Shown: positions 17,455 through 60,667, numbered from the stretch's first letter. The stretch is DNA of 64,000 bases from Candidatus Krumholzibacteriota bacterium (GCA_963764625.1 CAVXTH010000007.1:128001-192000); one strand, 5' to 3'. Notes: a model not told the origin generated them from the sequence alone. Numbers and translations: made by a program.

Positions 17455-17609
17455 GATGACCTCACGGAGACCTGAAACGCAACGATACCCGGCACGGCGA
17501 TCGCGGCGCATCCAGAGACCAGGAGCCGTTAGCGGTAGTAGCGCCCTCTCGGGTGAATCTTGTCAAGCGCAATGTTGCACGACGGGAAGCGCCACGCGGT
17601 CGCTGCCGG

Positions 17610-30210: not shown

Positions 30211-30253
30211 GATCGTCTCGCCTCGAAGCCTCAACCGTGAGAGAATTGGCGAG

Positions 30254-31519: not shown

Positions 31520-34500
31520 TCTCCCATTCCCTTCCCGAGGGCAGACCTTCCGGATACTGCGTTCCCTCCGCGGGCAGCGTCACCCCCACCGGCTGGTAGC
31601 GATTCGAATAGCGATCGAGGGTGCGATACAAACCGCGCACGCCGATCCGCGTCTGCGGCAGGTCGAACCACTTCGGCGTGCCCAGAGTGAACGAGACATC
31701 CGCCATCAATTGCAGGGGATAGGTCAGGTTGTGATCGTGGTGGTAGTCGTAGGGGCCGTAGTCGTTGACCTTTATGAAGCTGGAAAAAACCAGGGAAGGC
31801 CAGGCGATGCGGCTGTCGATCCCGAAGTGGTGGACGAGACGCGGATTGTCTCCATTGGGTTCAGCCGTTCCGTAGTAGAGGTGGCTGATCATCCGCACTC
31901 TTCGGCTGAGGCGATTGACCACGCGTCCGTGAAGCTCCCACAAGTCGCGCGCCGGAGTGGCGCCGGGAAAGGCCAGGATCGTGTTGTCGGCCGAGATGAA
32001 GAGACCCGCATCGGCGGTAGTGCGGTGGCGCTTGAAGACGAAGCCCAGGCTGGCCGCCAGGTCGGCATCCTCGCGCGTATCGTTGTCCCAGCTCCACATC
32101 CAGGTGGCGGGAGTCGGATCGTAGGTGATCATGAGCTCGGCGCCGGTGGTCTCGCGATTGCCGCGCACCGCGAACGGATCGTCCAGAACGTTGCGAGGAT
32201 GCCCGGGGGTGCCCGTCAGGTCGCTCGAATTGGGCATCGGACCCACGATGGGTTTCTGCCACAGGAAGTTGGGTCCGATCTGCCAGTTGCCGAAGCTGGC
32301 CGCAACGCCTGAGAGAGCATTGACCTGATTGCCCGAACCGCTGTCCCTCAGCTCCCAGCCGGTGAAAGTGGGAATGGCCGTGGGACCGGCCTCGGCCACC
32401 AGGCCCATGTACGCACCCTGTCCGTACCAGTGCCAGCGTCCGTGCTCCCAGGTCAGCTTGCCCTTGAAGCCGAGAGTGTCGTCGCTCTTGATCTTATCCT
32501 GCCGCACGTCCTGTGGAGCAATGGGGCCGCCTGCGTCCACCAGACTTTCTTCCACCAGCTGGAAAGTCTCTCCCACGCGCGGATCGCCGGACCAGAGGAA
32601 CCCTCCTTCGAAACCGAAGGGTCCGAGTCCGGTCTGCATCTGCAACGAGGCCTTGCGCGTCGATCGAATCGGAATCGCGATGGAGCTCGTGGCCTGCGAA
32701 CGCTGGGCGAAGTCGTCCTGATAGAGCCCCGTCCACTGAATGCCGCCCACGGAGCGTTCGTACTTCAAGAAAATGGCCGGGTTGGCTCCCCACCACAGCT
32801 GGGGACCCATGGCGAGCTTGAAGCCATTGAAGAACTTCTTGCCCGCCATTTCGAACCCGATCGGAGCTTCCCCGTTGTAGATGTCGAGGTTCTCACCGTA
32901 AAACGCGTCGCGGTAGAGGCCGAAGAAGTCTCCCTCGTATTGCCAGTGCAAATGCCCGGTGCGATAAAAGCTGTCGAGCATGAACCAACGGTCATCCCAC
33001 GAGAGATCAGCCTGATACACTTTCACTCGCTCCAGCGACTGGATCTCCACCGGGTTGCCCTGTTCGTCGAGAACTGTCTTGGGACGGCCGCGATTCTCGT
33101 AAAAGATCTCGTCGATCGGGTTCTGGGGTACGTTGCCCAGCACGCTGACGGAGAGCCGGCCCTGAACCGCATCGTTGGGCTGGGCCTGGATGTCCGCGAA
33201 GAACGATTCCCCGTGGTCGAAGCCCAAGAACGACGGATAGGAATCCTGCGGAGACTCGTTGTCGGGGGTGGAGATGTTCTTTCCCCCGGTGCTGTAGGTC
33301 TCCCACTCCAACCGAAGACCCGACACCCGCACTTTGCTCGAAAGATCGCTCTTCAAGCTGGCCGCGTCCCCGCGCGCCTGCAGCACCGCGGCCATGGGCT
33401 GGATCGCATGGAAGTGATCCCGGATGCTCTGAAGATCGGTTCCCGCCGCGTAGGGATCGAGCTTGAACGCATCGCGAAGCGCGTAGTAGGCCGCGCGCGG
33501 GTAGACCTCGTAATAGCCGTTGGGGTCGGGAAAGCCCTTGGCGGTAATTCCCCACCACTCCTCGTTCATGTTGTTGTCGCCCTCGTGGTAATCGAGAGGG
33601 TAACCCGCGTTCGGCCACGAGGCGTTGGTGTCGTGAATGTCGAGGCGGCTGTCCTGCCCAAACTTCCACCAGCCATCGCTCCACTGGAAGATCAGGCCAC
33701 CGATCGCGTTCCCCACGCGTCCCTTGGCGGCCGACTGTTCGTAGATCTCCTCCCACTGGCCGAGCAGGTAATACGCCTGAGCGGCCTGATCCTCTTTCAT
33801 GGTGATGGCATTGAAGGCATCGGAGCCGAACTCGGTGAAGAGAGCCGGGATGCCCAGTTTGTCGTGAACGACCTGGAAGAAGTCGCGGGCCGAGACCCCG
33901 CGGTAGACGTTGGAGCCAAAGATATCGAGCCGCGGGCACTCTTGGGCGACGATGTCGATGTATTGCACGTCTCCGTTGGCGATGGCCACCGGGCGGCTGG
34001 GATCACGCTGCTTGATGTCTTCGATGATCTCGCCGAAGAGGGAGTAGAGGAAGCGCGCGCGCGCCGCGTTCTGTTCGCCCTTGGGCAGAGCTTCGATCTC
34101 GAAGGACGACCAGGAGAGTCCGTAGTTGTTCTCGTTACCCAGAAGCCACATGAGAACCCCGGGAGTTCCCTTGTAGCGGTCCACCACGCTCGCCATTTCG
34201 GCCTTCAGGTAAGCGCGCACCTTGGGATCGCTGTAATTGGTCGATGGCTGCCACACACCGTCGATCGTCACCCCGTAGCGCCCGATGGTGTCGTTGATGA
34301 TGGTGAAGATTCCAAAGTTCTCGTAGATGTACTCGATCCAGCGGGGAGGGATGCCGGGAGCCTGGCGAATCGTATTCACGCCCATGGTGGACAACAGTGG
34401 CATCTCCCGGAAGAGCACTGCTTTGATGAAGTCATCCGGCTTGTTCCAGAAGTCGTAGCTGTAGTTGTATCCGATGGGCAAGTAGCCCCAGTTCATGCCG

Positions 34501-34700
34501 AAGACCATGAAATCGCGGCCATCCACTTGAAGCCGGGAGCCGCTCGAGTCGTTCACGGTCTCGATTTCCGGCAAGGCGGCGCCGGCGGTTTCAGCCTGTG
34601 CTTCGACCGGCACCAAGCCCGCCGCCGCAAGCAGGAGAAAGCCAAGGCCCACGACGAACAGGCGGCATTGGTTGGGTCGGCTACTTGGAATCGAATACAC
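31491..34700 (-). CDS. Secreted clan GH-A glycoside hydrolase (GH2 TIM-barrel/GH158-like) fused to ~600-aa predicted outer-membrane beta-barrel
   Basis: Signal peptide; MGVNTIR, WLLGNENN (acid/base), TEFGSDA (nucleophile), FQWSDGWWK, EEWWG; C-half rich in amphipathic beta-strands, ends WEIRTYLQLAI. Confidence 0.7.
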   Translation of the reverse strand: MYSIPSSRPNQCRLFVVGLGFLLLAAAGLVPVEAQAETAGAALPEIETVNDSSGSRLQVDGRDFMVFGMNWGYLPIGYNYSYDFWNKPDDFIKAVLFREMPLLSTMGVNTIRQAPGIPPRWIEYIYENFGIFTIINDTIGRYGVTIDGVWQPSTNYSDPKVRAYLKAEMASVVDRYKGTPGVLMWLLGNENNYGLSWSSFEIEALPKGEQNAARARFLYSLFGEIIEDIKQRDPSRPVAIANGDVQYIDIVAQECPRLDIFGSNVYRGVSARDFFQVVHDKLGIPALFTEFGSDAFNAITMKEDQAAQAYYLLGQWEEIYEQSAAKGRVGNAIGGLIFQWSDGWWKFGQDSRLDIHDTNASWPNAGYPLDYHEGDNNMNEEWWGITAKGFPDPNGYYEVYPRAAYYALRDAFKLDPYAAGTDLQSIRDHFHAIQPMAAVLQARGDAASLKSDLSSKVRVSGLRLEWETYSTGGKNISTPDNESPQDSYPSFLGFDHGESFFADIQAQPNDAVQGRLSVSVLGNVPQNPIDEIFYENRGRPKTVLDEQGNPVEIQSLERVKVYQADLSWDDRWFMLDSFYRTGHLHWQYEGDFFGLYRDAFYGENLDIYNGEAPIGFEMAGKKFFNGFKLAMGPQLWWGANPAIFLKYERSVGGIQWTGLYQDDFAQRSQATSSIAIPIRSTRKASLQMQTGLGPFGFEGGFLWSGDPRVGETFQLVEESLVDAGGPIAPQDVRQDKIKSDDTLGFKGKLTWEHGRWHWYGQGAYMGLVAEAGPTAIPTFTGWELRDSGSGNQVNALSGVAASFGNWQIGPNFLWQKPIVGPMPNSSDLTGTPGHPRNVLDDPFAVRGNRETTGAELMITYDPTPATWMWSWDNDTREDADLAASLGFVFKRHRTTADAGLFISADNTILAFPGATPARDLWELHGRVVNRLSRRVRMISHLYYGTAEPNGDNPRLVHHFGIDSRIAWPSLVFSSFIKVNDYGPYDYHHDHNLTYPLQLMADVSFTLGTPKWFDLPQTRIGVRGLYRTLDRYSNRYQPVGVTLPAEGTQYPEGLPSGREWEIRTYLQLAI

Positions 34701-36111
34701 GGGAGTCCCCTTCACTCTGAGTGGTAGTGGAGGCATCGGCGATCGCCGCGGGAACCTCGACCACGGTATTGGCCGATACCGCTTCGCGATAGTAGTAGGC
34801 GCTGTCCTTGGGGAGACGTTGCTGCGTGGTGAAATCGACTGAGAAGAGGCCGAACTTCTTCTTGTAACCGAATCCCCATTCGAAATTGTCCAGGAGCGAC
34901 CAGGCGAAATACCCCTTCAGGGGTACGCCGTCCTCGATGGCGCGATGGGCCGCCTTCAGGTGCTCGCGCAAATAATGAACTCGTTTCGCATCGGCGATGC
35001 GATCCAGAGGATCGATAGGGTAGTCGTACGCGGCCCCGTTTTCGGTGACGTAGATCTTGGGTGGTCCATACTCCCGGGAAACGCGCGTCAGACTCTCGTG
35101 GAGACCGCGCGGATAGACTTCCCACCCCATGTCGGTGAGTTCCTCCGAGGGTGCCACCTTCACGGCCACCGGACGTCCATCCTTTTGCGCCTTCATGACC
35201 ACCCGGCTGTAGTAGTTGAGACCCAGGAAATCCAGGGGCGCGGAGATGGCCTCCATGTCGCCCTCGCGAACGAAGGGCAGCTCAGGGCCTTTCAGATGGC
35301 CCGCGCGAACCCGATCGGTCACCGCGTCGGCGGGATAGGAACCCCGGAACAGAGGATCCAGATACCAACGGTGGAAGAAGCCGTCGAACCACCGCGCGGC
35401 GTCGCGATCGCCCGGATCGTCGCTGGCGGGGTGGGCGGGACAGTGGTTCAGCACGATCCCCAGCTCGGCTCGCGGCGTCTCGTCGCGAATCGCCCGGGTC
35501 GCCCAGCCGTGGGAGAGCAGCAGGTGATGCGCCACGCGTAGGGCCTCGGTGGGGTCCACATGGCCCGGGGCGTGATGGCCCTCTTCGTGACCGAGCGTGG
35601 CGATGCACCACGGCTCGTTGTGGGTCACCCAATGTTGTACCCGGTCTCCCAGCCGCCTCGTCACCGCGTCGGCGTACTCCACGAAAGCTTTCGCCGTGTC
35701 GCGCGCACCCCATCCGCCCTGTTCCTGCAGGACCTGAGGGAGGTCCCAGTGGTAGAGCGTGGGGAAGGGCTGGATCTTGGCCTCGAGCAGGGCGTCGACC
35801 AGAGCGTCGTAGAAGTCGAGGCCCGCCCGGTTCCGCGCGCCCCATCCCTTCGGCAGAATTCGCGGCCAGGAGATGGAGAAGCGGTAGGCGTCCAGGCCCA
35901 GCCACTTCATCAGGGCCAGGTCCTCGCGCCAGCGGTGGTAGTGATCGCAGGCCACGTCGGGGGTGGAGCCGTCCTCGATCTTCCCCGCCAGACCGGCGAA
36001 GTGGTCCCAGATGGAGTCGCTTCGCCCGCCTTCGCTTCGCCCACCCTCGATCTGCTGGGCGGACGTGGCGACCCCCCAGAGAAAGCCCTTGGGAAACTCG
36101 AAGCTGGCCAT
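34681..36111 (-). CDS. bglA: GH1 beta-glucosidase
   Basis: FPKGFLWGVATSAQQIEG, YRFSISWPR, TLYHWDLP, THNEP, YVTENG, WSLLDNFEW. Confidence 0.95.
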   Translation of the reverse strand: MASFEFPKGFLWGVATSAQQIEGGRSEGGRSDSIWDHFAGLAGKIEDGSTPDVACDHYHRWREDLALMKWLGLDAYRFSISWPRILPKGWGARNRAGLDFYDALVDALLEAKIQPFPTLYHWDLPQVLQEQGGWGARDTAKAFVEYADAVTRRLGDRVQHWVTHNEPWCIATLGHEEGHHAPGHVDPTEALRVAHHLLLSHGWATRAIRDETPRAELGIVLNHCPAHPASDDPGDRDAARWFDGFFHRWYLDPLFRGSYPADAVTDRVRAGHLKGPELPFVREGDMEAISAPLDFLGLNYYSRVVMKAQKDGRPVAVKVAPSEELTDMGWEVYPRGLHESLTRVSREYGPPKIYVTENGAAYDYPIDPLDRIADAKRVHYLREHLKAAHRAIEDGVPLKGYFAWSLLDNFEWGFGYKKKFGLFSVDFTTQQRLPKDSAYYYREAVSANTVVEVPAAIADASTTTQSEGDSRVFDSK

Positions 36112-36138: not shown

Positions 36139-36185
36139 TTTGTTCGGACTCCGAACATAGTGTATGATACCACGGGCGCTGTCAA
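36139..36185. promoter_or_regulatory. Divergent promoters overlapped by putative ROK operator
   Basis: Palindrome TGTTCGGA-C-TCCGAACA (36141-36157). + strand TTGTTC-17-TATGAT; - strand TTGACA(36185-36180)-17-CACTAT. Confidence 0.65.
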
Positions 36186-36228: not shown

Positions 36229-37206
36229 ATGCGAAATCTGGTCATCGCCGTCCTGACGGTCGCGGCACTTTTCTGTCCGCTCGTGGCCACGGCACAACCC
36301 CTGGCTTCCTATACCCAGGACTTCGAAGGCCTGGTGCAGACAGACGTGAACGCTCTGGCCAACGACGGCTGGCTCGTCTACGGCAACGTCTTCGACACGG
36401 ACGGTACCAGCTACCTGTACGGCTACGGTGCCTTTCCCGCCCCCAACACCGGCGCCGCATTCTGTCAGATCGTCATCGGCGAGGGTGGTCTAGAGCAGGG
36501 AGCGCAGCAGCTCGTCGTCTTCAGCGACTACGAGAACACCGATCACGCACTCGGCCACTATATCGAGTCCAACGTCTACCACGAGGAGAAAGTCGGTGCC
36601 GAGAACGTCGGTGAATCCTGGGTCTTCGAATTCGATTCGAAGCGCGGCAATCTGACGGGAAGCTCCACCGCCTTGGCCTTCATCAAGACCCTCGATCCCA
36701 GCAACGGCTACGCCCTGACCAACTTCATCACGGTGGACATGACGACGAGTCCCACCACCTGGAATCACTACTCGCTGTCCATCTCGATCGATGCGTCGCT
36801 GGAGGGTCAGTTGCTGCAGTTCGGCTACTCGAACACCGCCACGCTGTACGAAAGTGCGGGGATCTTCTACGACAACATCACCTTCCACCCGGATAATGCG
36901 ACGGGTAGCACGCCGGCTCGTTCCATGGTCGATGCCACCTTGCGGCAAAACTACCCGAATCCCTTCAATCCCAGCACCCGCATCGAATTCAGCCTGAATC
37001 AGGCGCAAAGCGTTGATTTGGCGGTCTTCGATCTGGCGGGTCGCCGTGTGGCCACGCTGGTGCGCGGCGCGCTCGAGAGCGGAGAGCATGCGGTGAACTG
37101 GAACGGTAGGAGCGACAACGGAGCTGCGGTGGCTTCGGGACGATACAACTACGTGCTGAGGACGCAGCACGGACAGCTGTCGGGAAGCATGACCTTGCTG
37201 AAGTAG
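36229..37206 (+). CDS. Secreted CBM-like beta-sandwich protein with FlgD-Ig/T9SS-type CTD
   Basis: GAGAGG RBS; signal peptide ATA-Q; LRQNYPNPFNPST...WNGRSDNG..VASG.Y CTD; paralog of 42409-43143. Confidence 0.8.
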   Translation: MRNLVIAVLTVAALFCPLVATAQPLASYTQDFEGLVQTDVNALANDGWLVYGNVFDTDGTSYLYGYGAFPAPNTGAAFCQIVIGEGGLEQGAQQLVVFSDYENTDHALGHYIESNVYHEEKVGAENVGESWVFEFDSKRGNLTGSSTALAFIKTLDPSNGYALTNFITVDMTTSPTTWNHYSLSISIDASLEGQLLQFGYSNTATLYESAGIFYDNITFHPDNATGSTPARSMVDATLRQNYPNPFNPSTRIEFSLNQAQSVDLAVFDLAGRRVATLVRGALESGEHAVNWNGRSDNGAAVASGRYNYVLRTQHGQLSGSMTLLK

Positions 37207-37233
37207 AGCCTTTTTCTCGACGAGCGGTACAAC

Positions 37234-40200
37234 ATGAAGACCAAGTCCAGTCTCAACCCGGTCTCTCCATCGACCGAGGAGTTGCCCGGGATTCCCGTCG
37301 GTGAGTTCGTCTGTCTGGAGGGGGAGAAGTACTACCGGATCTCCGCGTACGATCGTCTGGATCCCTTCCTGATGAGCGTGCCGAGCGATACGGATCTGTG
37401 GATGTTCGTGACTTCTGGTGGAGGTCTCACGGCCGGTCGGGTCGACGCGGACGGGAGTCTCTTTCCCTACCGTACCGTCGACCAGCTCCACGATGCGCAC
37501 CACCATACCGGGCCGCTGAGTTCGATCCAGCTGGAAAAGGCGAGCGGCGAGTGCGTGCGCTGGGATCCCTTCGCCGAAGATGGCGCCGAGAATCCCCGGA
37601 TCGAGTGGAATCTCTACAAGAACACCATCGGGAACCGCTTGGTGTTCGAGGAGATCAACCACGAGCTCGCTCTCGCGTTTCGGTACCGGTGGTCGGCGTG
37701 TGACGAATTCGGCTGGGTACGCAGCGCGACTCTGGAAAACCGCTCGCCTCTGGTGGCGCGGGTGACGCTTCTGGACGGGCTGAGGAACATCCTGCCCTAT
37801 GGAGCGCCTCTCTCGCTCTACCAGCAGTCGAGCAACCTGGTCGACGCCTACAAGAAGTCCGAAGTGGATCCGGAGACGGGGCTCGGCATCTATTCCCTTA
37901 CCGCGCAGATCACCGATCGGGCGGAGGCGCTCGAGATGCTCAAAGCCAATACGGTGTGGTGCTGTGGTCTGGAAAGATTCAAGGTCCATCTCTCTCTCGA
38001 CGCGGTGAAGTGCTTTCACGCGCGAAAACTACTGACCGAAGATAGGGTGACGAACGGAATTCGCGGCAACTACCTGGTGAGTTGCGCAGTGGAATTGCAG
38101 CCGAAGGAGAGTGCCCGCTGGCACATCGTGGGCGACACCGGTCGCGATCAGATACAGATTGCCGCTCTGCGGAAGAGATTGCTCGAGGAAGACGATCTGA
38201 GTGGGCTGATCGAGGAGAAGCTCCAGCTGGCGGGAGAGAATTTGCGCCGAAACGTGGCCAGCGCGGATGGGTTGCAGTTTTCGGAGTTGGAAGAGACCTG
38301 GGTTCACCACTTCACGAACGTGCTGTTCAACAACATGCGCGGCGGGGTGTTCCTGTACAACTACACCCTTCCCATGCCGGACTTCCGGGATTTCCTCCGC
38401 GTCCACGATCCCGCTGTACTTCGGCGAAGGCGGGCCGAGTTGGATCGGCTCCCGGAGATCTGCGAGCTGGACCAGGTTCATGCCGCGGCTCAGCGGTCGG
38501 CAGATCCCGACCTTCAACGGTTGAGCTACGAGTATCTTCCCCTCTACTTCGGACGGCGGCACGGCGATCCCAGCCGCCCCTGGAACGGCTTCTCCATCCG
38601 CACCCGAAACGAGGCAGGCGAGGAGAGGCTGAATTTCGAGGGGAATTGGCGCGACATCTTCCAGAACTGGGAAGCTCTCGGCACCGCCTTTCCCGGCTTC
38701 CTTTCCAGCATGGTAGCCAAGTTCGTCAACGCCTCGACGGTGGACGGGTTCAACCCGTACCGCATCACTCGCGACGGGGTGGACTGGGAGACCGTCGTCC
38801 CGAATGACCCGTGGAGCAACATCGGGTACTGGGGCGATCATCAGATCATCTACCTGTTGAAGCTTCTCGAGTCTTTGGATCGCCACGAGCCGGCGGCGCT
38901 CCACGAGCTGCTCGAACGGGAGATCTTCAGCTACGCCGAAGTTCCCTATCGCATCAAGCCGTACGAGGAGATTCTGAGGAACCCCCGTTCGACCATCGAT
39001 TTCGATCATGCGCGCGCGCGCGACATCGAGGAGAGGGTCCAGCGCGCGGGTACCGACGGAAAGCTCCTTCACGATTCGGACGGATCGGTCTACCACGCGA
39101 ATCTGTTCGAGAAGTTGCTGGTGCCGGCTCTCTCGAAGCTATCGAACCTGGTCCTCGATGCCGGCATCTGGATGAACACCCAGAGACCCGAGTGGAACGA
39201 CGCGAACAACGCGCTCGGTGGGGGCGGAGTCTCCGTGGTGACTCTGTGTCACCTGCGCCGCTACCTGGCCTTTCTCACCGGGCGGTTCGAAGCGAGCACG
39301 GCAAAAGAGTATCCCGTGTCGAGGGAAGTCGCCGATTGGTTGAACTCGATCGAGAGCATCCTGGGCCAGGAGCGGGATTTGCTCACACGCGAACATCCCG
39401 GGGGACGGGATCGAAAGCGGATGATGGATGCCCTCGGGGAGGCGTTCTCGGTCTATCGGCAGGGGGTGTATGCCCACGGATTCTCGGGCAAGACTCCGGT
39501 TGCGGTACGGCGGGTCGTGGAACTTTGTACGACCGCGCTGGAGTTCATCGACCACGGCATTGGCGCCAACCGCCGCCAGGACGGGCTCTTCCACACCTAC
39601 AACCTGCTGGACTTCGCGCCGGATGAGAGCAGCGCCGAAGTGAAGCGTCTGCCGGTCATGCTCGAGGGGCAGGTCGCCATCCTGAGTTCTGGATTCCTCC
39701 GGCCGCAGGAAGCGCTCGAAGTCCTGGAGCGGCTCTTCGCCAGCGCCCTCTACCAGCCAAGCCAGCGCAGCTTTTTTCTCTACCCCGAGAGGGAAGTGCC
39801 GGGCTTCATGGCGAAGAACGTGGTTCCGAGAGAGAGTGTGGAGGAGATCCCTCTCTTGAGGGAACTACTTGCGCAAAAGGACCACTCGGTGCTGGGGGAG
39901 GACGCCGAAGGCGTGCTTCGCTTCTGTGGCGAGTTCAAGAACGCACTGGATGTGAGCGTGGCCCTGGACGAGTTGAAGGAGCGAGAGGAATGGGCGGGTG
40001 CGGTGCAGCGGGACCGTCCCGCCACGCTCGAACTCTTCGAAGGGGTCTTCCACCACGAGTCCTACACCGGTCGCTCCGGAGTGATGTTCGGCTACGAGGG
40101 CCTGGGGTGCATCTACTGGCACATGATCGCTAAACTGCTCCTGGCGGTGCAGGAGACGATCTTTCGCGCCTTTGACGACGACGCGCCGCCGGCGGTGCGC

Positions 40201-40734
40201 GAGGCTCTCACCGCCATGTACTTCAGGGTCCGTGCCGGGCTCGGATACGAGAAATCCGTAGCCGAATTCGGCGCGTTTCCTACCGATCCCTACTCGCACA
40301 CCCCGGCGGCGGGAGGCGCGAAGCAGCCGGGCATGACCGGTCAGGTGAAGGAGGAAATCCTCACCCGGCAGGGCGAACTCGGGATCAGGGTCGAACACGG
40401 GCGCGTTCGCGTTCGGCCCCTTCTCCTGCGCAGTGAGGAGTTCCTGGCCCAGCCCAAGGTCTTCCACTATTTCGACGTCTCGGGAACAGCGCGTTCGATC
40501 ACCTTGTGTACCGACAGTTTGGCCTTCACCTTTTGTCAGGTGCCGGTGATCCTGCAGCGCACCGCGGAGAAGACGCGAATCGAGGTATGCTTCGAGAACG
40601 GAACGTCCTCTTTGGCGCAAGGCGATACGCTCTCGGCCGAGCTGAGCGCGGAGCTCTTTTCGCGCAGTGGACGCATCGAGAAGATCTCGGTCAAGATTCC
40701 GGACCACGAACTTAGCCCACACGAGCGGAGATGA
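37234..40734 (+). CDS. Probable GH149 beta-1,3-glucan phosphorylase
   Basis: 1166 aa, no signal peptide; motifs RRHGDPSRPWN, EGNWRDIFQNWE, YWGDHQIIY, WMNTQRPEWNDANNAL, YEGLGCIYWHM, FPTDPYSHTP, QPGMTGQVKE recalled as typical of GH149; context with GH16/GH17. Confidence 0.75.
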   Translation: MKTKSSLNPVSPSTEELPGIPVGEFVCLEGEKYYRISAYDRLDPFLMSVPSDTDLWMFVTSGGGLTAGRVDADGSLFPYRTVDQLHDAHHHTGPLSSIQLEKASGECVRWDPFAEDGAENPRIEWNLYKNTIGNRLVFEEINHELALAFRYRWSACDEFGWVRSATLENRSPLVARVTLLDGLRNILPYGAPLSLYQQSSNLVDAYKKSEVDPETGLGIYSLTAQITDRAEALEMLKANTVWCCGLERFKVHLSLDAVKCFHARKLLTEDRVTNGIRGNYLVSCAVELQPKESARWHIVGDTGRDQIQIAALRKRLLEEDDLSGLIEEKLQLAGENLRRNVASADGLQFSELEETWVHHFTNVLFNNMRGGVFLYNYTLPMPDFRDFLRVHDPAVLRRRRAELDRLPEICELDQVHAAAQRSADPDLQRLSYEYLPLYFGRRHGDPSRPWNGFSIRTRNEAGEERLNFEGNWRDIFQNWEALGTAFPGFLSSMVAKFVNASTVDGFNPYRITRDGVDWETVVPNDPWSNIGYWGDHQIIYLLKLLESLDRHEPAALHELLEREIFSYAEVPYRIKPYEEILRNPRSTIDFDHARARDIEERVQRAGTDGKLLHDSDGSVYHANLFEKLLVPALSKLSNLVLDAGIWMNTQRPEWNDANNALGGGGVSVVTLCHLRRYLAFLTGRFEASTAKEYPVSREVADWLNSIESILGQERDLLTREHPGGRDRKRMMDALGEAFSVYRQGVYAHGFSGKTPVAVRRVVELCTTALEFIDHGIGANRRQDGLFHTYNLLDFAPDESSAEVKRLPVMLEGQVAILSSGFLRPQEALEVLERLFASALYQPSQRSFFLYPEREVPGFMAKNVVPRESVEEIPLLRELLAQKDHSVLGEDAEGVLRFCGEFKNALDVSVALDELKEREEWAGAVQRDRPATLELFEGVFHHESYTGRSGVMFGYEGLGCIYWHMIAKLLLAVQETIFRAFDDDAPPAVREALTAMYFRVRAGLGYEKSVAEFGAFPTDPYSHTPAAGGAKQPGMTGQVKEEILTRQGELGIRVEHGRVRVRPLLLRSEEFLAQPKVFHYFDVSGTARSITLCTDSLAFTFCQVPVILQRTAEKTRIEVCFENGTSSLAQGDTLSAELSAELFSRSGRIEKISVKIPDHELSPHERR

Positions 40735-42350
40735 CGATGCATCCCAAGAACCTGCTTCCCACTCTGGCGTTTCTGGCCTGCTTTGGCCTGCTTGCTCCCG
40801 TCTCGGCCAGTGCGCAGTGCATTTTGGCCAACCCCAGTTTCGAGTTGTCCGGATCGGGAGGGCAGACTTTCGGGGGCTGGAATCAGTTCGGGGTGGTCGG
40901 TTCGACGAACCTCGCCACTCACGGCTCCAAAGCGGCCCGGGTCTCTGGCCCGAACTACGGTGGCTGGGACGTGTCGGCCTACTGGCAGGCTCAGGATTGC
41001 GTTCCCGGTGAGCAGTGGGAGATCACCGGCCACGTCAGGATTCCCTCGAGCAAGCCCTTGATCGGGAGCTGCGTGGCCCTGGTGAATGTCGAGTGGCGCG
41101 ATTCGGGAGGGACCCTGATCGACTACGACTCCTTCACCGTTGCGGACGCTTCGTCGCCCACCGACACCTATCTCGATTTCGATTTGACCAGTAGCGCTGC
41201 TCCAACCGGAACCGCCTCCACGCGTCTCCTGCTCGGGGTTCTTCAGAGCCCGAGCGATCCTTCTCCCGATGTCTACTACGACCAGGTCACCTTTTTCAGC
41301 ACCTCTCCTCCAACCATCGACGACCAGCAGTGGAACGATTTCCCGGGGGGACGAACGGTCAGTTTCGGCGGATACACCTGGCGCGTCAAAGGCCCGGGAT
41401 TTTACGGACCCGGAGCCAATCTGTTTTGCGATTCCTCCGACTGCGTCTGGGTGGACTCGAGCAATCAGCTCCATCTCACCCTGCAGAATCGCAGTGGGTC
41501 GTGGTACAGCACCGAGGTCGTCAACGAACAGGCTCTGGGATACGGAGACTACATTCTGACGACGGTCGGCCGCCTGGACCTCATCGACCCCCAGGCCGTT
41601 CTCGGCATCTTCCTGTGGCAGTATGGACCGTGCTGGGACGACGCCTACCTGTGGTGGAATCCGTACAACGAGATCGACGTCGAGTACAGCCGTTGGCAGA
41701 ATCCGGGCGCAGACATCGCCCAGTTCGTCGCCCAACCCTTCGACTACCCGGGCAATCTGGTTCGCTTCGACGCGAGCTTCGCGCCGGGCGAGGTGGTCAG
41801 CCATGCCATGCGGTGGCTTTCGGACAGTGTCGAATACAGAGTGTGGCGCGGGGGTCCGAACGACGAATCACCGGCGAACCTCATTTACTCCTGGACCTAC
41901 ACCGGTCCGCACATTCCCCGCCCCGAGCAGCCACGGATGCACCTGAATCTGTGGAGAATCGACGGCGTGCCGGCCTCGAACCAAGAAGTGATCTTCCAGG
42001 ATTTCACCTACGTGCCCGAGGGAGGCCCGACCGCAGTCGAGGACGGCGGGGTGGCGCGAATTCCCTCGGTATCGGGCGGCCATCTCTACCCCGCGGTGCC
42101 GAATCCCTTCAATCCATCCACCACCATCCGCTTCGACCTGGCCCGGACCGGCTACGCGAGTCTCGAGGTCTACGACCTCAGCGGCCGGCACGTGCGGACC
42201 CTCGACAGCGGTTACCTGAGCGCGGGGCAGCACTGGGCGCTGTGGAACGGGCAGGACGAGCATGGCAAGACGGTGGCTTCTGGCGTGTACTTCCTGCGGC
42301 TGTCGGGCCAGGACTTCGTGAAGACCCAGCGAGTGGCCCTCATCAAATAG
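40731..42350 (+). CDS. Secreted CBM-like + GH16-like glucanase + FlgD/T9SS-type CTD
   Basis: Signal peptide ASA-Q; LANPSFE CBM-like domain; catalytic EIDVE (ExDxE) motif; AVPNPFNPST CTD. Confidence 0.7.
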   Translation: MTMHPKNLLPTLAFLACFGLLAPVSASAQCILANPSFELSGSGGQTFGGWNQFGVVGSTNLATHGSKAARVSGPNYGGWDVSAYWQAQDCVPGEQWEITGHVRIPSSKPLIGSCVALVNVEWRDSGGTLIDYDSFTVADASSPTDTYLDFDLTSSAAPTGTASTRLLLGVLQSPSDPSPDVYYDQVTFFSTSPPTIDDQQWNDFPGGRTVSFGGYTWRVKGPGFYGPGANLFCDSSDCVWVDSSNQLHLTLQNRSGSWYSTEVVNEQALGYGDYILTTVGRLDLIDPQAVLGIFLWQYGPCWDDAYLWWNPYNEIDVEYSRWQNPGADIAQFVAQPFDYPGNLVRFDASFAPGEVVSHAMRWLSDSVEYRVWRGGPNDESPANLIYSWTYTGPHIPRPEQPRMHLNLWRIDGVPASNQEVIFQDFTYVPEGGPTAVEDGGVARIPSVSGGHLYPAVPNPFNPSTTIRFDLARTGYASLEVYDLSGRHVRTLDSGYLSAGQHWALWNGQDEHGKTVASGVYFLRLSGQDFVKTQRVALIK

Positions 42351-42353
42351 AAA

Positions 42354-42373
42354 GGGCCCGGATTTCCGGGCCC
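42354..42373. terminator. Bidirectional terminator hairpin
   Basis: GGGCCCGG-ATTT-CCGGGCCC between convergent genes. Confidence 0.65.
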
Positions 42374-42408
42374 CTCCTTCGCTGGAATGAACTTTCCAGA
42401 ATCTTCGT

Positions 42409-43143
42409 CTAGTGGAAGAGAGCCTTCACTTTGCCGAAGCTCGATTCCTGCGCCGAAATCGCGCCGTCCATGAAGAAGCTCACGTTGTCGTAGAAGGTTC
42501 CCGAGGCCTCGAAGTTCGTGGCCCGATTCGAGAAGCCAAACTGCAGAATCTGGCCGGCCAGGCTCGGGACGATATCGATCGACAGCGCGTAATCACCCCA
42601 AGTCGCGGGGATGGATGTCATGTCTACCGTGATGAAATTCGTCGTCGCATAGCCGTTACCGGGATCCAGGGTCTTGATGAAGGCCAGAGCCGTCGAGGCT
42701 CCCGCCAGGTCACCGTGTTTGGCCTGGAAGGTGAAGAACCATTTTCCGCCAACGTCACCCGCAGCGATCGTCTGCTCGTGAAAGACATTGGACTCGACGA
42801 TATTTCCCGCGTTGTGCGCGTCGGCATTGTTGTAGTCGCTGAACACGACCAGTTGTTGGGCTCCCTGGGCCGCGCCGCCCTCCCCGGCCGCGATCGTACA
42901 GAACGCGTAGGGGGGACCGCTGTTGGGTGCCGGAAAGGCGCCATAGCCGCCGATATACGTGACGCCGTCTGGAGCAAAGACATTGCCGTAGACCAGCCAG
43001 CCATCGGCGCCAAGAGCGCCCGTGTCCGTCTGCCCGAGGGTCTCGAAATCCTGGCCGTACCCGCTTAGCTGAGCGCTCGCCATCACCGGCATCAGGCAGA
43101 TCAGCAGGGCGGCCGCAAAGATCGCAGTAGCTCGATTGGTCAT
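42409..43143 (-). CDS. Secreted CBM-like protein (paralog of 36229-37206) with short SFGxxK tail
   Basis: Signal peptide ASA-Q; shared blocks DGWLVYGNVF, YGAFPAPN, QGAQQLVVFSDY, STALAFIKTLDP; ends ISAQESSFGKVKALFH. Confidence 0.85.
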   Translation of the reverse strand: MTNRATAIFAAALLICLMPVMASAQLSGYGQDFETLGQTDTGALGADGWLVYGNVFAPDGVTYIGGYGAFPAPNSGPPYAFCTIAAGEGGAAQGAQQLVVFSDYNNADAHNAGNIVESNVFHEQTIAAGDVGGKWFFTFQAKHGDLAGASTALAFIKTLDPGNGYATTNFITVDMTSIPATWGDYALSIDIVPSLAGQILQFGFSNRATNFEASGTFYDNVSFFMDGAISAQESSFGKVKALFH

Positions 43144-43258: not shown

Positions 43259-43378
43259 TATGTTCGGTAACCGAATCAAGTCCTAGATTGACGGCAGGGC
43301 GCAAGATAGGGCAGGGTGGGCCAGAATTCTGTTGACCCCCTTGTCGCGAGCGGATACTTTGTTCGTAGTTCGAACAAA
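43259..43378. promoter_or_regulatory. Two putative ROK operators in divergent intergenic region
   Basis: TATGTTCG-GTAAC-CGAATCAA (43259-43279) and TTTGTTCG-TAGTT-CGAACAAA (43358-43378), the latter right after TTGACC...GATACT. Confidence 0.65.
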
Positions 43379-43434: not shown

Positions 43435-44916
43435 ATGAATCCTGCCGTCCATTCCAGAACTGCGCCCGAGGATCGAGTCCGCTTCCCCCACCGGCTGGCC
43501 TACGGGGCTGGCGCCTTCGTCAATAATCTCCTGGCCGCGGCCAGTGGCGGGATGATGATCGTCCTGAACCTGGGACTCGGGATGAACCCCGGGCTGGTGG
43601 GTCTCTTGGGGGCTCTGCCCCGGCTGACCGACGCCTTCACCGATCCCCTCATGGGGTACATTTCGGACAACACCCATACGCGGTGGGGGCGCCGGCGTCC
43701 CTACATCTTCTGGGGCGCCATCGCGGCCGGGATCATCTTCGCTTTGCTGTGGCAGCTCCCCCGCGATCGAAGCCAGGCCTTCTACTTCATCTTCTTCCTC
43801 GTGGGATCGATTCTCTTCTACGGCGGGTACACGGTCTTCGCCACGCCCTGGGTCGCTCTCGGCTATGAGCTCACGCCCGACTACAACGAGCGAACTCGTC
43901 TGATGGGCACGCAGAACTTCATCGGTCAGCTCGCCTATGTGGTCTCCCCTTGGTTTCTCTGGATCATGAACTCGGGAAAATTCTTCCCGGATCAGGTTTC
44001 CGGAGCGGCCGGACTGGCCATCATCGTGGCGGTGGTGGCCATCGGATTGGGTATTCTGCCAGCGATTTTTCTGCGCGAGCGCATGCAGAGTTTGGCGGCG
44101 GAGGAGATGGAGGTCTCCAAGGCAGCCGGGAAAGGCGAGGAGCGGGCTCTCAAGCACAACCTCAGAGAGTTCTTCAAGGGATTCAAGGTCACGCTGTCGA
44201 ATGGGCCCTTCCTGAAGCTGTGTATGGCTACCTTCCTGGTGTTCAACGGCTTCATGCTCATCGCCTCGTTCCAATACTACGTGATCATCTACTACGTGTG
44301 CGGTGGCGACCAGACCGCCGGCGCCAAGTACGCCGGCTTGGCCGGCACCGTGGGCGCGGTGTGCACCTTCGCCGTGGTCGCGTTCGTCACCTGGCTCGGC
44401 ACCAGGATCGGAAAGCGCCACACCTTCTTCTTGGCCATCGGTCTCTCCATCATCGGTTACGGTCTGAAGTGGGTCTGCTACAACCCGAACGTGCCGCTGT
44501 TGGTGGTGCTTCCCGCGCCGCTAATGGCTTTCGGCTTGGGCGGTCTGTTCACTCTGGTTCCATCCATGATCGCCGACGTGGTGGACACGGACGAACTCAC
44601 GACGCACGAACGGCGTGAGGGAATGTTCGGCTCGATCTTCTGGTGGATGGTGAAACTGGGAATGGCAGCGGCACTGGCCGGCGGTGGCTATCTGCTCAAT
44701 GCCACCGGCTTCGAGGTCGACCTGGGGGGGAACCAGGCGCACCATTCCATCATTCTTCTGCGGCTGTGCGACGCGGGGATCCCCATGGTCACCTCAGCCC
44801 TGGCGATCTGGGCCGTGGCCAAGTTCCCGATTTCCGAGGCGAAAGCCCTCGAGGTGCGCCAGGAACTCGAACGCCGTAGAGGGCGGCCGGTGGCGGCCGA
44901 TGCGATGGGGAGTTGA
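43435..44916 (+). CDS. MFS glycoside-pentoside-hexuronide (GPH) sugar transporter
   Basis: DAFTDPLMGYISD..TRWGRRRPY, ELTPDYNERT, SMIADVVD..RREGMF; ~12 TM helices. Confidence 0.9.
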   Translation: MNPAVHSRTAPEDRVRFPHRLAYGAGAFVNNLLAAASGGMMIVLNLGLGMNPGLVGLLGALPRLTDAFTDPLMGYISDNTHTRWGRRRPYIFWGAIAAGIIFALLWQLPRDRSQAFYFIFFLVGSILFYGGYTVFATPWVALGYELTPDYNERTRLMGTQNFIGQLAYVVSPWFLWIMNSGKFFPDQVSGAAGLAIIVAVVAIGLGILPAIFLRERMQSLAAEEMEVSKAAGKGEERALKHNLREFFKGFKVTLSNGPFLKLCMATFLVFNGFMLIASFQYYVIIYYVCGGDQTAGAKYAGLAGTVGAVCTFAVVAFVTWLGTRIGKRHTFFLAIGLSIIGYGLKWVCYNPNVPLLVVLPAPLMAFGLGGLFTLVPSMIADVVDTDELTTHERREGMFGSIFWWMVKLGMAAALAGGGYLLNATGFEVDLGGNQAHHSIILLRLCDAGIPMVTSALAIWAVAKFPISEAKALEVRQELERRRGRPVAADAMGS

Positions 44917-44921
44917 GTTCC

Positions 44922-45929
44922 ATGCAGCTTCGCTCCGGCGTGGCTATCCTGCTCTTGGGCTCGATCTTGGCCCTCTTCGTGACCGGGATCGCGGGCTCTT
45001 TGGGCCCAGCTCACGCTGAGTCTCGCTCCCCCGGAGAGGAGATTTTCGCAGTGCGTCCCCTGCGGTTGGAAGAAAACGGCACCTGGATCGGAAACGCAAT
45101 CTGCTACAGCCCCTATCGAGACGGTCAGCGCCCGGGGGGCGCTACTCCCACCCCGGCTCAACTCCGCGAAGACTTGCGCTTGATGCTTCCGCACTGGAAA
45201 CTGCTGCGTACTTATGGAGCTTCCGGCTTTGCCGAGAACCTGCTCGAGCTGATTCGCGCCGACGATTTGGAAATGAAAGTGATGCTCGGCGTGTGGATCG
45301 CATCCGAGGATACCGCTCTGAATCGACGCGAAGTCGATGCAGCGGTACGCTTGGCAAACGCATTCCCCAATATCGTTCTCGCGGTTTGCGTCAGCAACGA
45401 GACTCAGGTCTCTTGGTCGTACAATCGGATCCCAGCCAGCGAGTTGATCGAGTATGTGCGTCGCGTGCGCGCAAGAGTTGCGGCACCGGTAACGGTGGCC
45501 GACGACCTCAAATACTGGAACAAGCCGGAGAGTCGCAAAGTTGCGGCTGAAATCGATTTCATCACCTTGCACGCGCACCCCCTGTGGAACGGAATCCTTT
45601 TGCCCGACGCCCTCTCGTGGCTGCAGGAGCAGGTGGAGGCGGTGCAGGCCATGCATCCCGAGCGGGAGATCGTGCTCGGCGAGACGGGTTGGGCTACCGC
45701 CTATTCCGACGAGGGCGAGCAGGGTGCGTTGATCAAAGGCCAGACCGGCGAGAGCGAGCAGAAACTGTTCTACCAGGCCACTCGGAGATGGGCCGAGACG
45801 AAGAAACTGCCCATATTCACCTTCGAGGCCTTCGACGAAAACTGGAAGGGCGGTACGGACCCGACCGAGGTGGAGAAGCACTGGGGTCTGTTTCGTGCCG
45901 ACCGATCGGCGAAAATGGCACTTCGTTGA
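44922..45929 (+). CDS. GH17 beta-1,3-glucanase/glucanosyltransferase
   Basis: AICYSPYRDGQ, LRTYG, MLGVWI, VSNE, LGETGWAT, FEAFDENWK, EKHWG. Confidence 0.85.
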   Translation: MQLRSGVAILLLGSILALFVTGIAGSLGPAHAESRSPGEEIFAVRPLRLEENGTWIGNAICYSPYRDGQRPGGATPTPAQLREDLRLMLPHWKLLRTYGASGFAENLLELIRADDLEMKVMLGVWIASEDTALNRREVDAAVRLANAFPNIVLAVCVSNETQVSWSYNRIPASELIEYVRRVRARVAAPVTVADDLKYWNKPESRKVAAEIDFITLHAHPLWNGILLPDALSWLQEQVEAVQAMHPEREIVLGETGWATAYSDEGEQGALIKGQTGESEQKLFYQATRRWAETKKLPIFTFEAFDENWKGGTDPTEVEKHWGLFRADRSAKMALR

Positions 45930-46800: not shown

Positions 46801-49029
46801 ATGGTCCCCAGCCATGAGCACCGCGCTATCACTTGTTTCTTCCTGTTTCTGTTCCTGATCATTGCTTCCATCGCGAATGCGGCAGACACCACTCTGCAAA
46901 ACGATGGTTTCTACGCAGGAGCGGGAGTCGGCTTCCAAGGTGGTTTCGTTACCGGCGAGATCGGCGCGTCGCGCTTCACTCCGCCCGGTTCCGTCCAGCT
47001 CAAGCAGGTACTCTTTCTGTTCGGAGGGGCCGGCGGTTCAGCGACGATCACTCTGCACATTTGGGACGATTCGGCCCTGAGACCAATCTCCGGCGTTGAA
47101 CTCTACAGCAACGACTATCTCCTCACCCCCTCGGATACCGATCTCCAACAGATCGATTTGAGCGGAGAGAGCATCTACGTCTCGGGGCCTTTTCGGGTGG
47201 GCATCCAGTTTCAGCAGGACGGGTACCCCTCCATTGCGCGCGATGACGACGGAACGATCACGTCCTCGTTGAACTACATCAACGCGAGCGGTCTGGGATG
47301 GTATCAATCGTCTCTCTTGGGATTGACCGGAGACTGGATCATCCGGGCCGTGGTTGGAACCGCACCCGCATCCTACACCGTCGGCGGTACGGTCAGCGGA
47401 TTGAACGGCATTCTAGTGTTGCAAAACAATGGGGGAGACGACCTGGTGATCAGCGGCGACGGCGCCTTCTCTTTCGCAACGCCTCTTACTGACGGCAGCA
47501 GCTACGAAGTGACCGTACTCTCCGCTCCAGCCAATCAGAACTGTGTGGTGAGCATGGGGACGGGAACCATCTCCGGGTCGAACGTGACCAACGTCTCCGT
47601 GAGCTGCAGCGATAAGCCGACGACAGTGCAGGTATTGCAACACGATAGCTTCATCCCCGGTCAGAACGCGGGTTTTCAGGCCGGATTTGTGGCCAACGAG
47701 ATCGCTGCGGTTCGTTTCACTCCGCCTGGTCTAGTTCATCTCGAAGCGGTACGATTTCTCTTTGGAGGAGCGTCAGGACTCACCTCGATTCGTTTGCACG
47801 TATGGGATGACGCCGCGGAAACGGATGATCCCGGCACCGAACTCTTGGCTCAGGATTACCTCATCGATGCTTCGGACGTCGCGCTCCAGGAGATCGATCT
47901 CGGTTCGCAGGGCCTCCAGCTCACGGGACCGTTCCGGGTGGGGGTCGAGCTTCTCGCGGCGGGTCTGCCATCGGTGGCGAGGGACGATGACGGCAACATC
48001 GACAGCGCGGTCAATTTCATTCTGGGCCAAAGCATCGGCTGGGTGAAGTCGAGTACGGTGGGTCTCACCGGCGACTGGATCTTGCGGGCGATTGTGAGTC
48101 TCGCTTCATCGTTCCCGGAACCCATCATCTTGGCAGTGGATGACATCGGCAACGATCAAGGGGGACAAGTACGTCTGAGCTTTCAGAGCTCGAGCCAGGA
48201 TGCTCTGGGAGCCACGCAGCCGGTGCTGAGCTATGAGGCCTATCGCCGCATCGACTCGCTGCCCTTCGGAGCCATCGCTGGGGTCTCCGCCAAAAAGCTA
48301 GCGGGCTGGGAATACGTGGGTGCGGTTCCGGCGCACGGTGAAACCGAGTACAACATGATCGTGCCCACCCTGGCCGATTCCACCATCAGCCAGGGAATGC
48401 ACTGGTCGGTGTTCTTCGTTCGGGCCGCGACCGCCTCGCCAACGATTTTCTACGATGCGGCGCCCGATTCCGGCTGGTCGCTGGACAACCTGGCACCGAG
48501 CGCGCCCAACAATCTCGTGTTGAACGCGGCGCAGCTCGATTGGACTCCCGCGGCCGAATCGGATTTCGACTACTACAGGGTGTACGGTTCCTCGACCGGA
48601 GCCCTCGACGGGTCAGAGATGCTACTGGGCGCCACGAGCGCGAACTCGTATTCCGTTTCAGGCAGCCCCCAGCCGTATTATCTGGTGACCGTTGTCGATT
48701 TCGCGGGGAACGAAGGCGAGGCTTCCGCGGTGCAGAATACCGCCACCGGGGTCGAGAACGTGCCCCCCCGCGATTTGTGGGTGCGCGTGAGTCCCAACCC
48801 CTTCAACCCGGCCACCTCGATTCGCTTCTACTTGCCCGAAGCGGCGCCGGTCAGTCTGCGGGTCTATGACCAGAGGGGGCGGCTGGTGGACACGCTCTTG
48901 CGGTCACAACCGTTTCCGCAAGGGGAACACCTCGTGCCCTATCGAAGCGAACTGCCGAGCGGAGTCTATTTGCTGAAGCTGATCAGTGCGAATCAAAGCC
49001 AGACGGCTAAGATCAGTCTGGTGCGTTGA
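46801..49029 (+). CDS. Secreted multidomain protein: duplicated ~150-aa beta domain, YTVGGTVSGL spacer, Fn3-like domain, FlgD/T9SS-type CTD
   Basis: Signal peptide; two homologous domains ending GLTGDWI(I/L)RA; DIGNDQGG domain; SPNPFNPAT CTD. Confidence 0.8.
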   Translation: MVPSHEHRAITCFFLFLFLIIASIANAADTTLQNDGFYAGAGVGFQGGFVTGEIGASRFTPPGSVQLKQVLFLFGGAGGSATITLHIWDDSALRPISGVELYSNDYLLTPSDTDLQQIDLSGESIYVSGPFRVGIQFQQDGYPSIARDDDGTITSSLNYINASGLGWYQSSLLGLTGDWIIRAVVGTAPASYTVGGTVSGLNGILVLQNNGGDDLVISGDGAFSFATPLTDGSSYEVTVLSAPANQNCVVSMGTGTISGSNVTNVSVSCSDKPTTVQVLQHDSFIPGQNAGFQAGFVANEIAAVRFTPPGLVHLEAVRFLFGGASGLTSIRLHVWDDAAETDDPGTELLAQDYLIDASDVALQEIDLGSQGLQLTGPFRVGVELLAAGLPSVARDDDGNIDSAVNFILGQSIGWVKSSTVGLTGDWILRAIVSLASSFPEPIILAVDDIGNDQGGQVRLSFQSSSQDALGATQPVLSYEAYRRIDSLPFGAIAGVSAKKLAGWEYVGAVPAHGETEYNMIVPTLADSTISQGMHWSVFFVRAATASPTIFYDAAPDSGWSLDNLAPSAPNNLVLNAAQLDWTPAAESDFDYYRVYGSSTGALDGSEMLLGATSANSYSVSGSPQPYYLVTVVDFAGNEGEASAVQNTATGVENVPPRDLWVRVSPNPFNPATSIRFYLPEAAPVSLRVYDQRGRLVDTLLRSQPFPQGEHLVPYRSELPSGVYLLKLISANQSQTAKISLVR

Positions 49030-60439: not shown

Positions 60440-60667
60440 AGAGTGCCTCCACGGGAAGAGTGTCGGTGAGACTACGGGCGGCCGCGTCCAACGTAGAGGA
60501 CCGACGCAGCCGGAAGGATTCGTTCTCACTCTTCTCCTGCGCGAGTGTAGCCTAATTATAGGGTCCCTGTCGAGCCGGCCGATCCGTGATACGGCCCAAA
60601 ACGGTATCAAATAGCAATTTAGCCGGCTCGACCCGCCCAGTCTGGTACCGCTGCGGCCCGTGGTGAT

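Follow-up and report, generated by a model that had tools for sequence, protein, structure and literature searches.

A short C-terminal tag on unrelated proteins of a Candidatus Krumholzibacteriota bacterium, and its alternation with a type IX secretion-type domain on paralogs of a β-1,3-glucan utilisation locus

LPXTG, PEP-CTERM and the C-terminal domain (CTD) of type IX secretion systems (T9SS) each led to dedicated machinery and now allow the surface proteome to be predicted from sequence, and NCBIfam uses the name 'choice-of-anchor' for domain families with alternative C-terminal sorting signals. Here, a 64,000-nucleotide stretch of DNA from a Candidatus Krumholzibacteriota bacterium (GCA_963764625.1, CAVXTH010000007.1:128001-192000; hereafter the window, with positions counted from its first nucleotide) was analysed for two paralogous genes of a conserved β-1,3-glucan (laminarin-type) utilisation locus, which encode the same core domain followed by a T9SS-type CTD (paralog A) or by a tail of 16 residues, referred to as the tag (paralog B). 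The tag is a real and strictly C-terminal element that is under purifying selection, is separate from the fold that it follows, occurs proteome-wide and is able to drift in concert. It is probably read by one shared component of the envelope, with a fate for its carriers that differs from that of the T9SS-routed paralog.

The T9SS type-A CTD (TIGR04183/PF18962; FlgD_ig, PF13860) resembles the tag in its C-terminal position on Sec-exported proteins, in marking tens of unrelated cargoes per genome, in being interchangeable on a shared core and in its occurrence in lineages of the Fibrobacteres-Chlorobi-Bacteroidetes (FCB) type with SprA/PorV/PorU-like genes, but it is ~40-100 residues long compared to 16, and the tag has no immunoglobulin (Ig)-like sandwich, no B/D/E motifs and no match to a model. 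PEP-CTERM/exosortase signals are, like the tag, short and C-terminal with a [VI]-P-x start after the last domain, and homologs of the same core carry PEP-CTERM-like tails; the tag, in contrast, lacks a transmembrane helix (no hydrophobic span) and a terminal Arg cluster. A single PEP-CTERM-like open reading frame (ORF) was counted in this genome, where no search aimed at exosortase was made. Dockerin-cohesin pairs, in which a short C-terminal module docks many proteins to one receptor, parallel the proposed role of the tag, and dockerin-like repeats (assigned by eye) form the C-terminus of some homologs of the core, though the tag has no Ca-binding repeats, is far shorter and has no identified cohesin partner. 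With the 'choice-of-anchor' families the core shares the arrangement of one extracytoplasmic domain with several alternative C-terminal sorting signals, but it matches no NCBIfam or Pfam model, and the tag is not in those libraries. As modelled with AlphaFold2 (AF2), the core has the β-sandwich fold of carbohydrate-binding modules (CBMs), with Foldseek matches to CBM16, CBM61, CBM22 and CBM4 (E ~1e-5, target TM ~0.6), and its genes likewise lie in a glucan-utilisation locus, but sequence identity is 9-16% and no named CBM family could be assigned by sequence (no Pfam or NCBIfam match). The label 'glucan-binding' is therefore putative, resting on CBM fold similarity and on the locus.

Paralog A (36229-37206, +; 325 amino acids) consists of a Sec signal peptide, the CBM-like β-sandwich core (~24-224), a linker and a T9SS type-A/FlgD_ig CTD (~240-325), while paralog B (42409-43143, -; 244 amino acids) consists of a Sec signal peptide, the same core (27-225), a short linker and the tag. 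The original prediction, made from the sequence alone, was correct in stating that the two align over the whole mature domain: by BLASTP 139 of 229 positions were identical (61%, E 3e-87), from residue 1 to 224 of paralog A and 1 to 228 of paralog B, with both signal peptides inside the alignment. Homology had been placed to end near FYDN, and the BLASTP alignment terminates at ...FYDN(I/V)(T/S)F(H/F)(P/M)D(N/G)A, 4-8 residues past that motif. Beyond the breakpoint, paralog A matched FlgD_ig (PF13860, 42.8 bits; cut-off 27) and the T9SS type A sorting domain (TIGR04183, 23.7 bits; cut-off 23), with PF18962 sub-threshold (20.3 bits; cut-off 27), whereas paralog B ends in ISAQESSFGKVKALFH and matched no Pfam or NCBIfam family in profile scans of the whole protein, which agrees with the predicted CTD on one gene and short tail on the other. 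A T9SS route for paralog A is plausible, given the SprA, PorU-like and PorV-like genes and the CTD-bearing ORFs of the genome described below. The tag of paralog B (42412-42459, -; residues 229-244, I-S-A-Q-E-S-S-F-G-K-V-K-A-L-F-H) is an instance of the motif described below. The stop codons of paralog B and of the convergent gene 40731-42350 are 58 bp apart, too close for a decayed CTD to follow the tag. The two paralogs are the only close tag/CTD pair in this genome, with two weaker pairs at 31-34% identity.

The frequency of the tag was determined across the 22,389 stop-to-stop ORFs of ≥80 amino acids in the 3.57-Mb genome (9 contigs). The pattern [ST][FWY]Gx[ILVMF]K had 48 matches, 40 of which fell within the last 20 residues (a zone holding 10.6% of all residues), and in 39 of these 40 the motif started 9-13 residues before the C-terminus. 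The eight internal matches were cytoplasmic-looking chance matches, save one decayed paralog. Alignment of the 40 tails gave a core of S30/T10, W31/F9, G40, any residue, L22/V12, K40, A26/S11, any residue and F19/Y17, preceded by an upstream element (V27/I5/L4 at -6, P18/A8/G6 at -5, A18/T9/S7 at -4) and three variable positions. The resulting consensus, [VI]-[PA]-[AT]-x3-[ST]-[WF]-G-x-[LV]-K-[AS]-x-[FY], is followed by 0-5 residues (9 in one ORF). Forty tagged ORFs is a lower bound, with a looser look adding the variants VSFSKIKSSYGK, MGWGAWKARYGH and TSWSAMKAAFK. A candidate identity as the β-signal of outer-membrane proteins, in which a terminal aromatic residue belongs to the last strand of a β-barrel, was rejected, as the carriers have soluble sandwich, helix or lamin-tail-type domains and 22 of the 40 tags extend past the aromatic position, by 1-5 or more residues.

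The tag carriers are mutually unrelated and include a lamin tail domain protein, β-helix/NosD-like proteins, CxxCH proteins, an fn3 lipoprotein, a 7-member family without an assigned fold and many proteins without any family. A signal-like N-terminus was present in 26 of the 40 tagged ORFs by a crude rule and in seven more by eye, the rest being fragments or doubtful ORFs, and many of the carriers are housed in polysaccharide-utilisation loci. Five isolated 30-residue tails returned nothing relevant from NCBIfam at E up to 10. Keyword searches of the literature, where the motif itself is not queryable, found no description of the tag, nor any report of type IX secretion in Krumholzibacteriota or Latescibacteria or of C-terminal sorting in Eisenbacteria.

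Conservation of the tail was assessed on relatives of paralog B, of which 983 were found at E up to 1e-3 in a search of 5.8 billion clustered proteins. The closest 121 sequences (119 database matches and paralogs A and B) had 67 strict tags, 18 CTDs and 36 other endings, most of the latter being tag variants (with x-VK-x-L-[FY]-R after SWS, SMG or TWT). Entropy, calculated per position over 102 tagged orthologs, was 0.95, 1.25, 1.03, 3.05, 1.02, 0.08, 1.31, 0.79 and 0.99 bits in the tag, compared to 2.9-3.4 bits in the linker and 0.8-0.9 bits in the FYDN motif of the core, with the Lys kept in 101 of 102 orthologs. The spacing from FYDN to the motif was constant at 17-19 residues in these orthologs, which come from many assemblies. 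In the AF2 model of paralog B (63-row alignment; predicted local distance difference test [pLDDT], 92.0; predicted TM-score [pTM], 0.84) the β-sandwich ends at residue 225 and is followed by an unstructured linker and then by a short helix at 236-242 with pLDDT ~70. Some homologs terminate directly after FYDNxxV, and the core is thus complete without the tail. Two explanations named with the original prediction as able to overturn it, a tail that forms a structural part of the domain and a truncated or frameshifted CTD remnant, were both looked at; what was found was a sandwich that closes before the tail and homologs that lack one, and a tail and spacing conserved across orthologs with 58 bp of sequence behind the gene. 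Two further homologs end in ...NQPVPVELMS[FL]S[IV]E, in which the V-P-x-E-x-x-S-F start matches the first half of the tag; this ending may be a contig truncation or a further type of tail.

Distribution across genomes was followed with a DNA-level proxy (W-G-x-[LVIMF]-K-x-x-[FY] with a stop within one codon) and the reversed pattern as control. In this genome there were 23 matches compared to 0 in a shuffle. The proxy was found in all 151 genomes of the phylum to which this genome belongs (1-88 per genome as a lower bound; control 0-3) and in 21 of 21 genomes of the phylum of an Eisenbacteria-titled genome (2-55 per genome, likewise a lower bound; control 0-1), or 20 of 20 without the unpublished genome G194. 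It was at control level in 21 Planctomycetota genomes (0-3 per genome). A Latescibacterota-titled genome (G152) was considered as the source of a third phylum and rejected, as its phylum draws the same genome set as this genome's and supplies no independent group; its NCBI title is thus at odds with the grouping used here. The apparently tag-poor genera were likewise rejected as natural knock-outs, their orthologs keeping variant tags (SWS, TWT, SLD) that the W-G proxy misses.

The endings of paralog B orthologs in those genera (TTWTEVKSLFR, HSWSGVKSLFE, TSWSGVKSLFR, TTLSGVKALFE and TSLDSVKALFR) are drifted forms of the tag, and a second proxy, W-[S/T and similar]-x-[LVIMF]-K-x-x-[FY]-x-stop, was set against the first. 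Three genomes of one genus (g55) had 43 matches to the W-[ST] proxy compared to 6 to the W-G proxy (G097; W-[ST] control 1), 20 compared to 2 (G089; control 0) and 14 compared to 1 (G090; control 2), whereas this genome (G000) had 3 and 23, respectively (control 2). When 20 of the 43 sites in G097 were sampled, the full tag was present in all 20, including an upstream [VI]-x-[VT]-E, on 15 unrelated BLAST clusters. Genomes of the same genus are not independent, and the switch in g55 counts as one event, not three. In a second genus (g32), one genome (G055) had 17 matches to VK-x-L-[FY]-x-stop, the latter half of the tag (control 2), with both forms of the first half rare, and in another (G070) the control was as high as the signal. 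Co-evolution with a single trans-acting reader would be expected to replace Gly by Ser/Thr in step on unrelated proteins, and the replacement observed argues for one shared reader; among the new observations, this concerted drift is the strongest evidence for it.

The age of the alternative tails was approached through the loci in which the core occurs. Gene order was kept in 68 related loci, with record titles mostly of Krumholzibacteriota/-ia and Eisenbacteria/Eiseniibacteriota, as a ROK-family regulator, a 1081-residue protein, a glycoside hydrolase (GH) of family GH1, the core with CTD, GH149, a 539-residue CTD protein, the tagged core, a major facilitator superfamily (MFS) transporter and GH17. 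The tagged core was present in 51 of the 68 and a regex-called CTD core in 38, with 13 more having endings that mostly look like CTDs; both forms occurred together in at least 29 (contig ends limit this count). A FastTree phylogeny on core columns was restricted to 137 single-domain homologs of 200-360 amino acids with classed tails (102 tag, 21 CTD, 14 PEP-CTERM-like), on which C-terminal type changed four times (minimum possible, 2; shuffled mean, 33; 0 of 200 shuffles as low). With so few changes, the tag and CTD forms are old lineages retained together and not products of recent exchange; by this sequence comparison, paralogs A and B represent an ancient paralogy co-retained in one locus. 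In a broader sample, the best 150 of 642 cluster representatives at E up to 1e-3, tails classed by regex were 12 PEP-CTERM-like, 4 CTD, 6 tag and 128 other, the last including, by eye, further VPxP-TM-RR tails, dockerin-like repeats, tandem cores and bare cores. The same core domain is therefore found with distinct C-terminal sorting-type tails (tag, CTD and PEP-CTERM-like). The claim that the two C-termini are interchangeable modules stands at the scale of the family (tag, CTD, PEP-CTERM-like, dockerin-like or none), but not as a recent swap at this locus, given the four changes on the tree and the co-retention in at least 29 of 68 loci.

A single reader for the tag draws on its terminal position, the unrelatedness of its carriers, selection, independence from the fold, its place in the slot of sorting signals, the concerted drift, the co-retention of the two forms and the distribution across genomes. 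In this reading both paralogs are exported by Sec, and paralog A would then most likely cross the outer membrane via a SprA/PorV/PorU-type system. The tag would be a recognition peptide for one common trans-acting component of the envelope, either a receptor or a processing enzyme, and would give its carriers a destination or attachment different from that of CTD proteins, such that one putative glucan-binding module may be placed outside through the T9SS and the other, encoded next to the gene for an MFS importer, kept at a second envelope site. From these lines of evidence we infer that the tag decides location, and likewise its destination and the existence of its reader. It would in that case be a C-terminal recognition or sorting signal, and would represent a new system if dedicated machinery exists. 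A more specific proposal is offered tentatively, at somewhat short of an even chance: that the tag marks the substrates of an unrecognised sorting or surface-attachment system in Krumholzibacteriota and Eisenbacteria, running parallel to the T9SS with its own receptor or sortase, and that the switch in g55 is a footprint of co-evolution with it.

A tag without a membrane span or folded domain labels tens of proteins per genome (up to 88 proxy matches) in two phyla known mostly from metagenomes. As an address label, should it prove to be one, it would delimit a set of exported proteins that has no annotation as such, and would point to a new envelope machine. The paralog pair, with the same core behind a tag or a CTD, constitutes a ready-made comparison for tag function, and the motif switch in g55 would offer a comparative handle on the reader that could, if the reading is true, help to find it.

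Several observations weigh against one dedicated reader with a destination of its own. No receptor, sortase or exporter was found for the tag. No partner family recurred in Pfam scans of 113 ORFs (75 and 38) near tag genes, and BLAST clusters of 367 ORFs within 6 kb of tag genes yielded only CTD-linked proteins, a family of tag paralogs and a large Ser/Thr-kinase/PD40 family of paralogs. SprA was present in 151 of 151 genomes of the phylum, a universality because of which co-occurrence cannot separate a T9SS-dependent from a T9SS-independent route. The W-G proxy undercounts variant tags, and its per-genome numbers are not comparable between lineages. The argument that the tag occupies the same slot as known sorting signals is one of analogy, and the c-type-cytochrome-like carriers would fit the periplasm as well as the surface.

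An unlikely alternative is that the T9SS-type system which handles the CTD proteins also takes the tag, as a minimal signal, with one route and different processing or anchoring of the two paralogs. Whether the genome encodes SprA, PorU and PorV had been raised with the original prediction, and the answer is mixed: SprA was above its cut-off of 200 bits in two ORFs (236.8 and 223.6 bits), while PorU-like and PorV-like genes were present as an adjacent pair but below their cut-offs (277.9 bits, cut-off 420, and 105.4 bits, cut-off 250). PorU-like matches fell in three overlapping reading frames (contig C6, C6:500177-505511) and SprA matches in two ORFs (C9:993505-1000012), either of which may reflect an assembly indel error or a real break, whereas the PorV-like gene directly downstream of PorU is an intact, single-copy barrel ending ...SLSFLF. 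GldM had no match in this genome, with control genomes silent too, and GldK only a weak generic match (89 bits; cut-off 350); the motor/ring of the T9SS may be absent from the phylum or too divergent, despite universal SprA. CTDs of the NPFNP type were found on 63 ORFs. SprA and tags occur together in every genome of the phylum searched, and shortened CTDs function in Prevotella intermedia according to one report (PMC11969387). The tag itself, however, is a 16-residue element modelled as one short helix without a match to a CTD model, whereas motifs B, D and E are retained, along with an Ig-like sandwich of several strands, by known CTDs and also by the 'short' ones (PMC11969387), and the sandwich architecture is reported as essential (PMC11285876). 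The tag is also unlike the CTD ends of this genome (...K-x-x-[LVM]-x-L-[LIV]-K). PorV did not co-vary with the switch in g55, where 3 of 50 conserved columns were changed, within the range of six other genus groups and a single g32 genome (1-8 of 54-57). A complex prediction of the PorV-like protein (38-343, 28-row alignment) with paralog B (26-244, 63-row alignment) scored 0.00 in both runs, which is evidence neither way, and no link between the tag and SprA, PorV or PorU was found.

It is similarly improbable that the tag governs handling in the periplasm and not location, as a peptide that docks or is recognised by a chaperone or a protease (such as an S41 C-terminal processing peptidase or a PDZ protease of the HtrA type), or as a point of covalent tethering via Lys, which would control maturation, turnover or wall attachment. 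The invariant Lys (40 of 40 here in addition to the orthologs above) and the extreme C-terminal position are consistent with such a role, as are carriers that look periplasmic, such as the CxxCH proteins, and a gene for an S41/PDZ peptidase convergent to the tag gene at C5:93355. This single neighbour could be chance, though, and the variable residues past the motif are a poor fit to a PDZ domain reading a free C-terminus. Among bacteria, enzymes of the S41 and HtrA types are regarded as near-universal, whereas the proxy was at background in the 21 Planctomycetota.

A membrane-binding amphipathic helix, acting as an in-plane anchor without a protein partner, appears very unlikely. The W/F, L/V and F/Y positions fall on one face (i, i+3, i+7) with the Lys beside them, and the helix predicted for residues 236-242 would suit such an anchor, but it has only about two turns, roughly half the length of in-plane anchors like those found in penicillin-binding proteins. 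Conservation of the specific Ser/Thr, Gly and Lys and of the [VI]-[PA]-[AT] element six residues upstream, along with the concerted switch from Gly to Ser/Thr in one genus, favours a specific reader over bulk lipid. An artefact, whether the remnant of a CTD after frameshift or truncation or one of the structural strands of the core, can be dismissed for practical purposes, as the frame breaks in this assembly (PorU in three frames, SprA in two ORFs) are outweighed by the conservation of the tail in 102 orthologs from many assemblies, the 58-bp downstream gap and a fold that is complete without the tail.

The locus around the pair begins with the ROK-family regulator (30167-31519, +; PF00480, 191 bits), which has a winged-helix N-terminus and was present in 16 of the 68 related loci. 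It is followed by the 1081-residue exported protein (31491-34736, -; 24 of 68 loci), in which a weak match to a GH2_C TIM-barrel (24.9 bits) covers the first 310 residues; about 700 residues after this region have no family match, and a fusion of an enzyme with a module for binding or for the outer membrane is conceivable. The GH1 β-glucosidase (34681-36090, -; from the Pfam scan, start codon approximate) is divergent from paralog A, beyond which lie the GH149 β-1,3-glucan phosphorylase (37234-40734, +; NF058639, 1495 bits, cut-off 1150) and the 539-residue exported protein with a T9SS-type CTD (40731-42350, +; 45 of 68 loci). Past paralog B are the MFS_2 sugar transporter (43435-44916, +), the usual neighbour of the tagged paralog, and the GH17-like protein (44913-45929, +; 39 of 68 loci). 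Just past the locus, a 742-residue protein (46801-49029, +) matched Por_Secre_tail (27.1 bits) and had no match in its N-terminal part.

The operator-like site claimed upstream of both paralogs is real as sequence, with the palindrome TGTTCGN5CGAACA before each (2 matches compared to 0.16 expected). The first 17-bp copy, TGTTCGGACTCCGAACA (36141-36157), lies in the divergent promoter region of GH1 and paralog A, and the second, TGTTCGTAGTTCGAACA (43360-43376), between paralog B and the MFS gene, with a weaker third copy near 43262. A function of the palindrome as an operator for the ROK regulator is plausible.

Elsewhere in the window, an unrelated tagged protein with a lamin-tail-domain core (15823-16614, -) ends in ...SSDSWGAMKARY, and another without a known family (16702-17511, -) in ...GKSWGMIKSLFHD. 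A short putative ORF (52474-52791, -) ends in ...RSSWGMLKGQF, and a variant-tag protein (59684-60610, -), 48% identical to the tagged protein at C5:93355-94383, in ...VSFSKIKSSYGK. Tagged proteins with CxxCH motifs are encoded at C7:58628-59380 (four motifs) and C6:211675-212160 (one motif and a match to Temptin_C), and are c-type-cytochrome-like. The latter gene opens a 29-kb region (C6:211675-240318) with eight tagged genes and a 2201-residue CTD protein that has matches to DUF4082, Big_5, GH16 and cohesin.

Fragments of the 7-member tagged family also occur at C6:48807-49495 and C8:98104-98820. The proteins encoded at C9:482451-483059 and C9:500958-501551 share 99% identity up to residue 150, beyond which they diverge, and the second lacks the tag and looks like a frameshifted duplicate. 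At C9:85813-89433 (-) lies a second glycan locus in which an enzyme with a CTD is paired with a tagged protein. It is an apparent three-gene operon whose products are a PorV/FadL-like barrel of 346 residues (39.5 bits against the PorV model), a PF10091 glycoamylase carrying a T9SS CTD and a tagged protein of 309 residues. A trio consisting of a CHAT-TPR protein of ~930 residues and two small proteins, one with a CTD and one with the tag, is found twice in the genome (C1:43248-49176 and C7:237605-241967).

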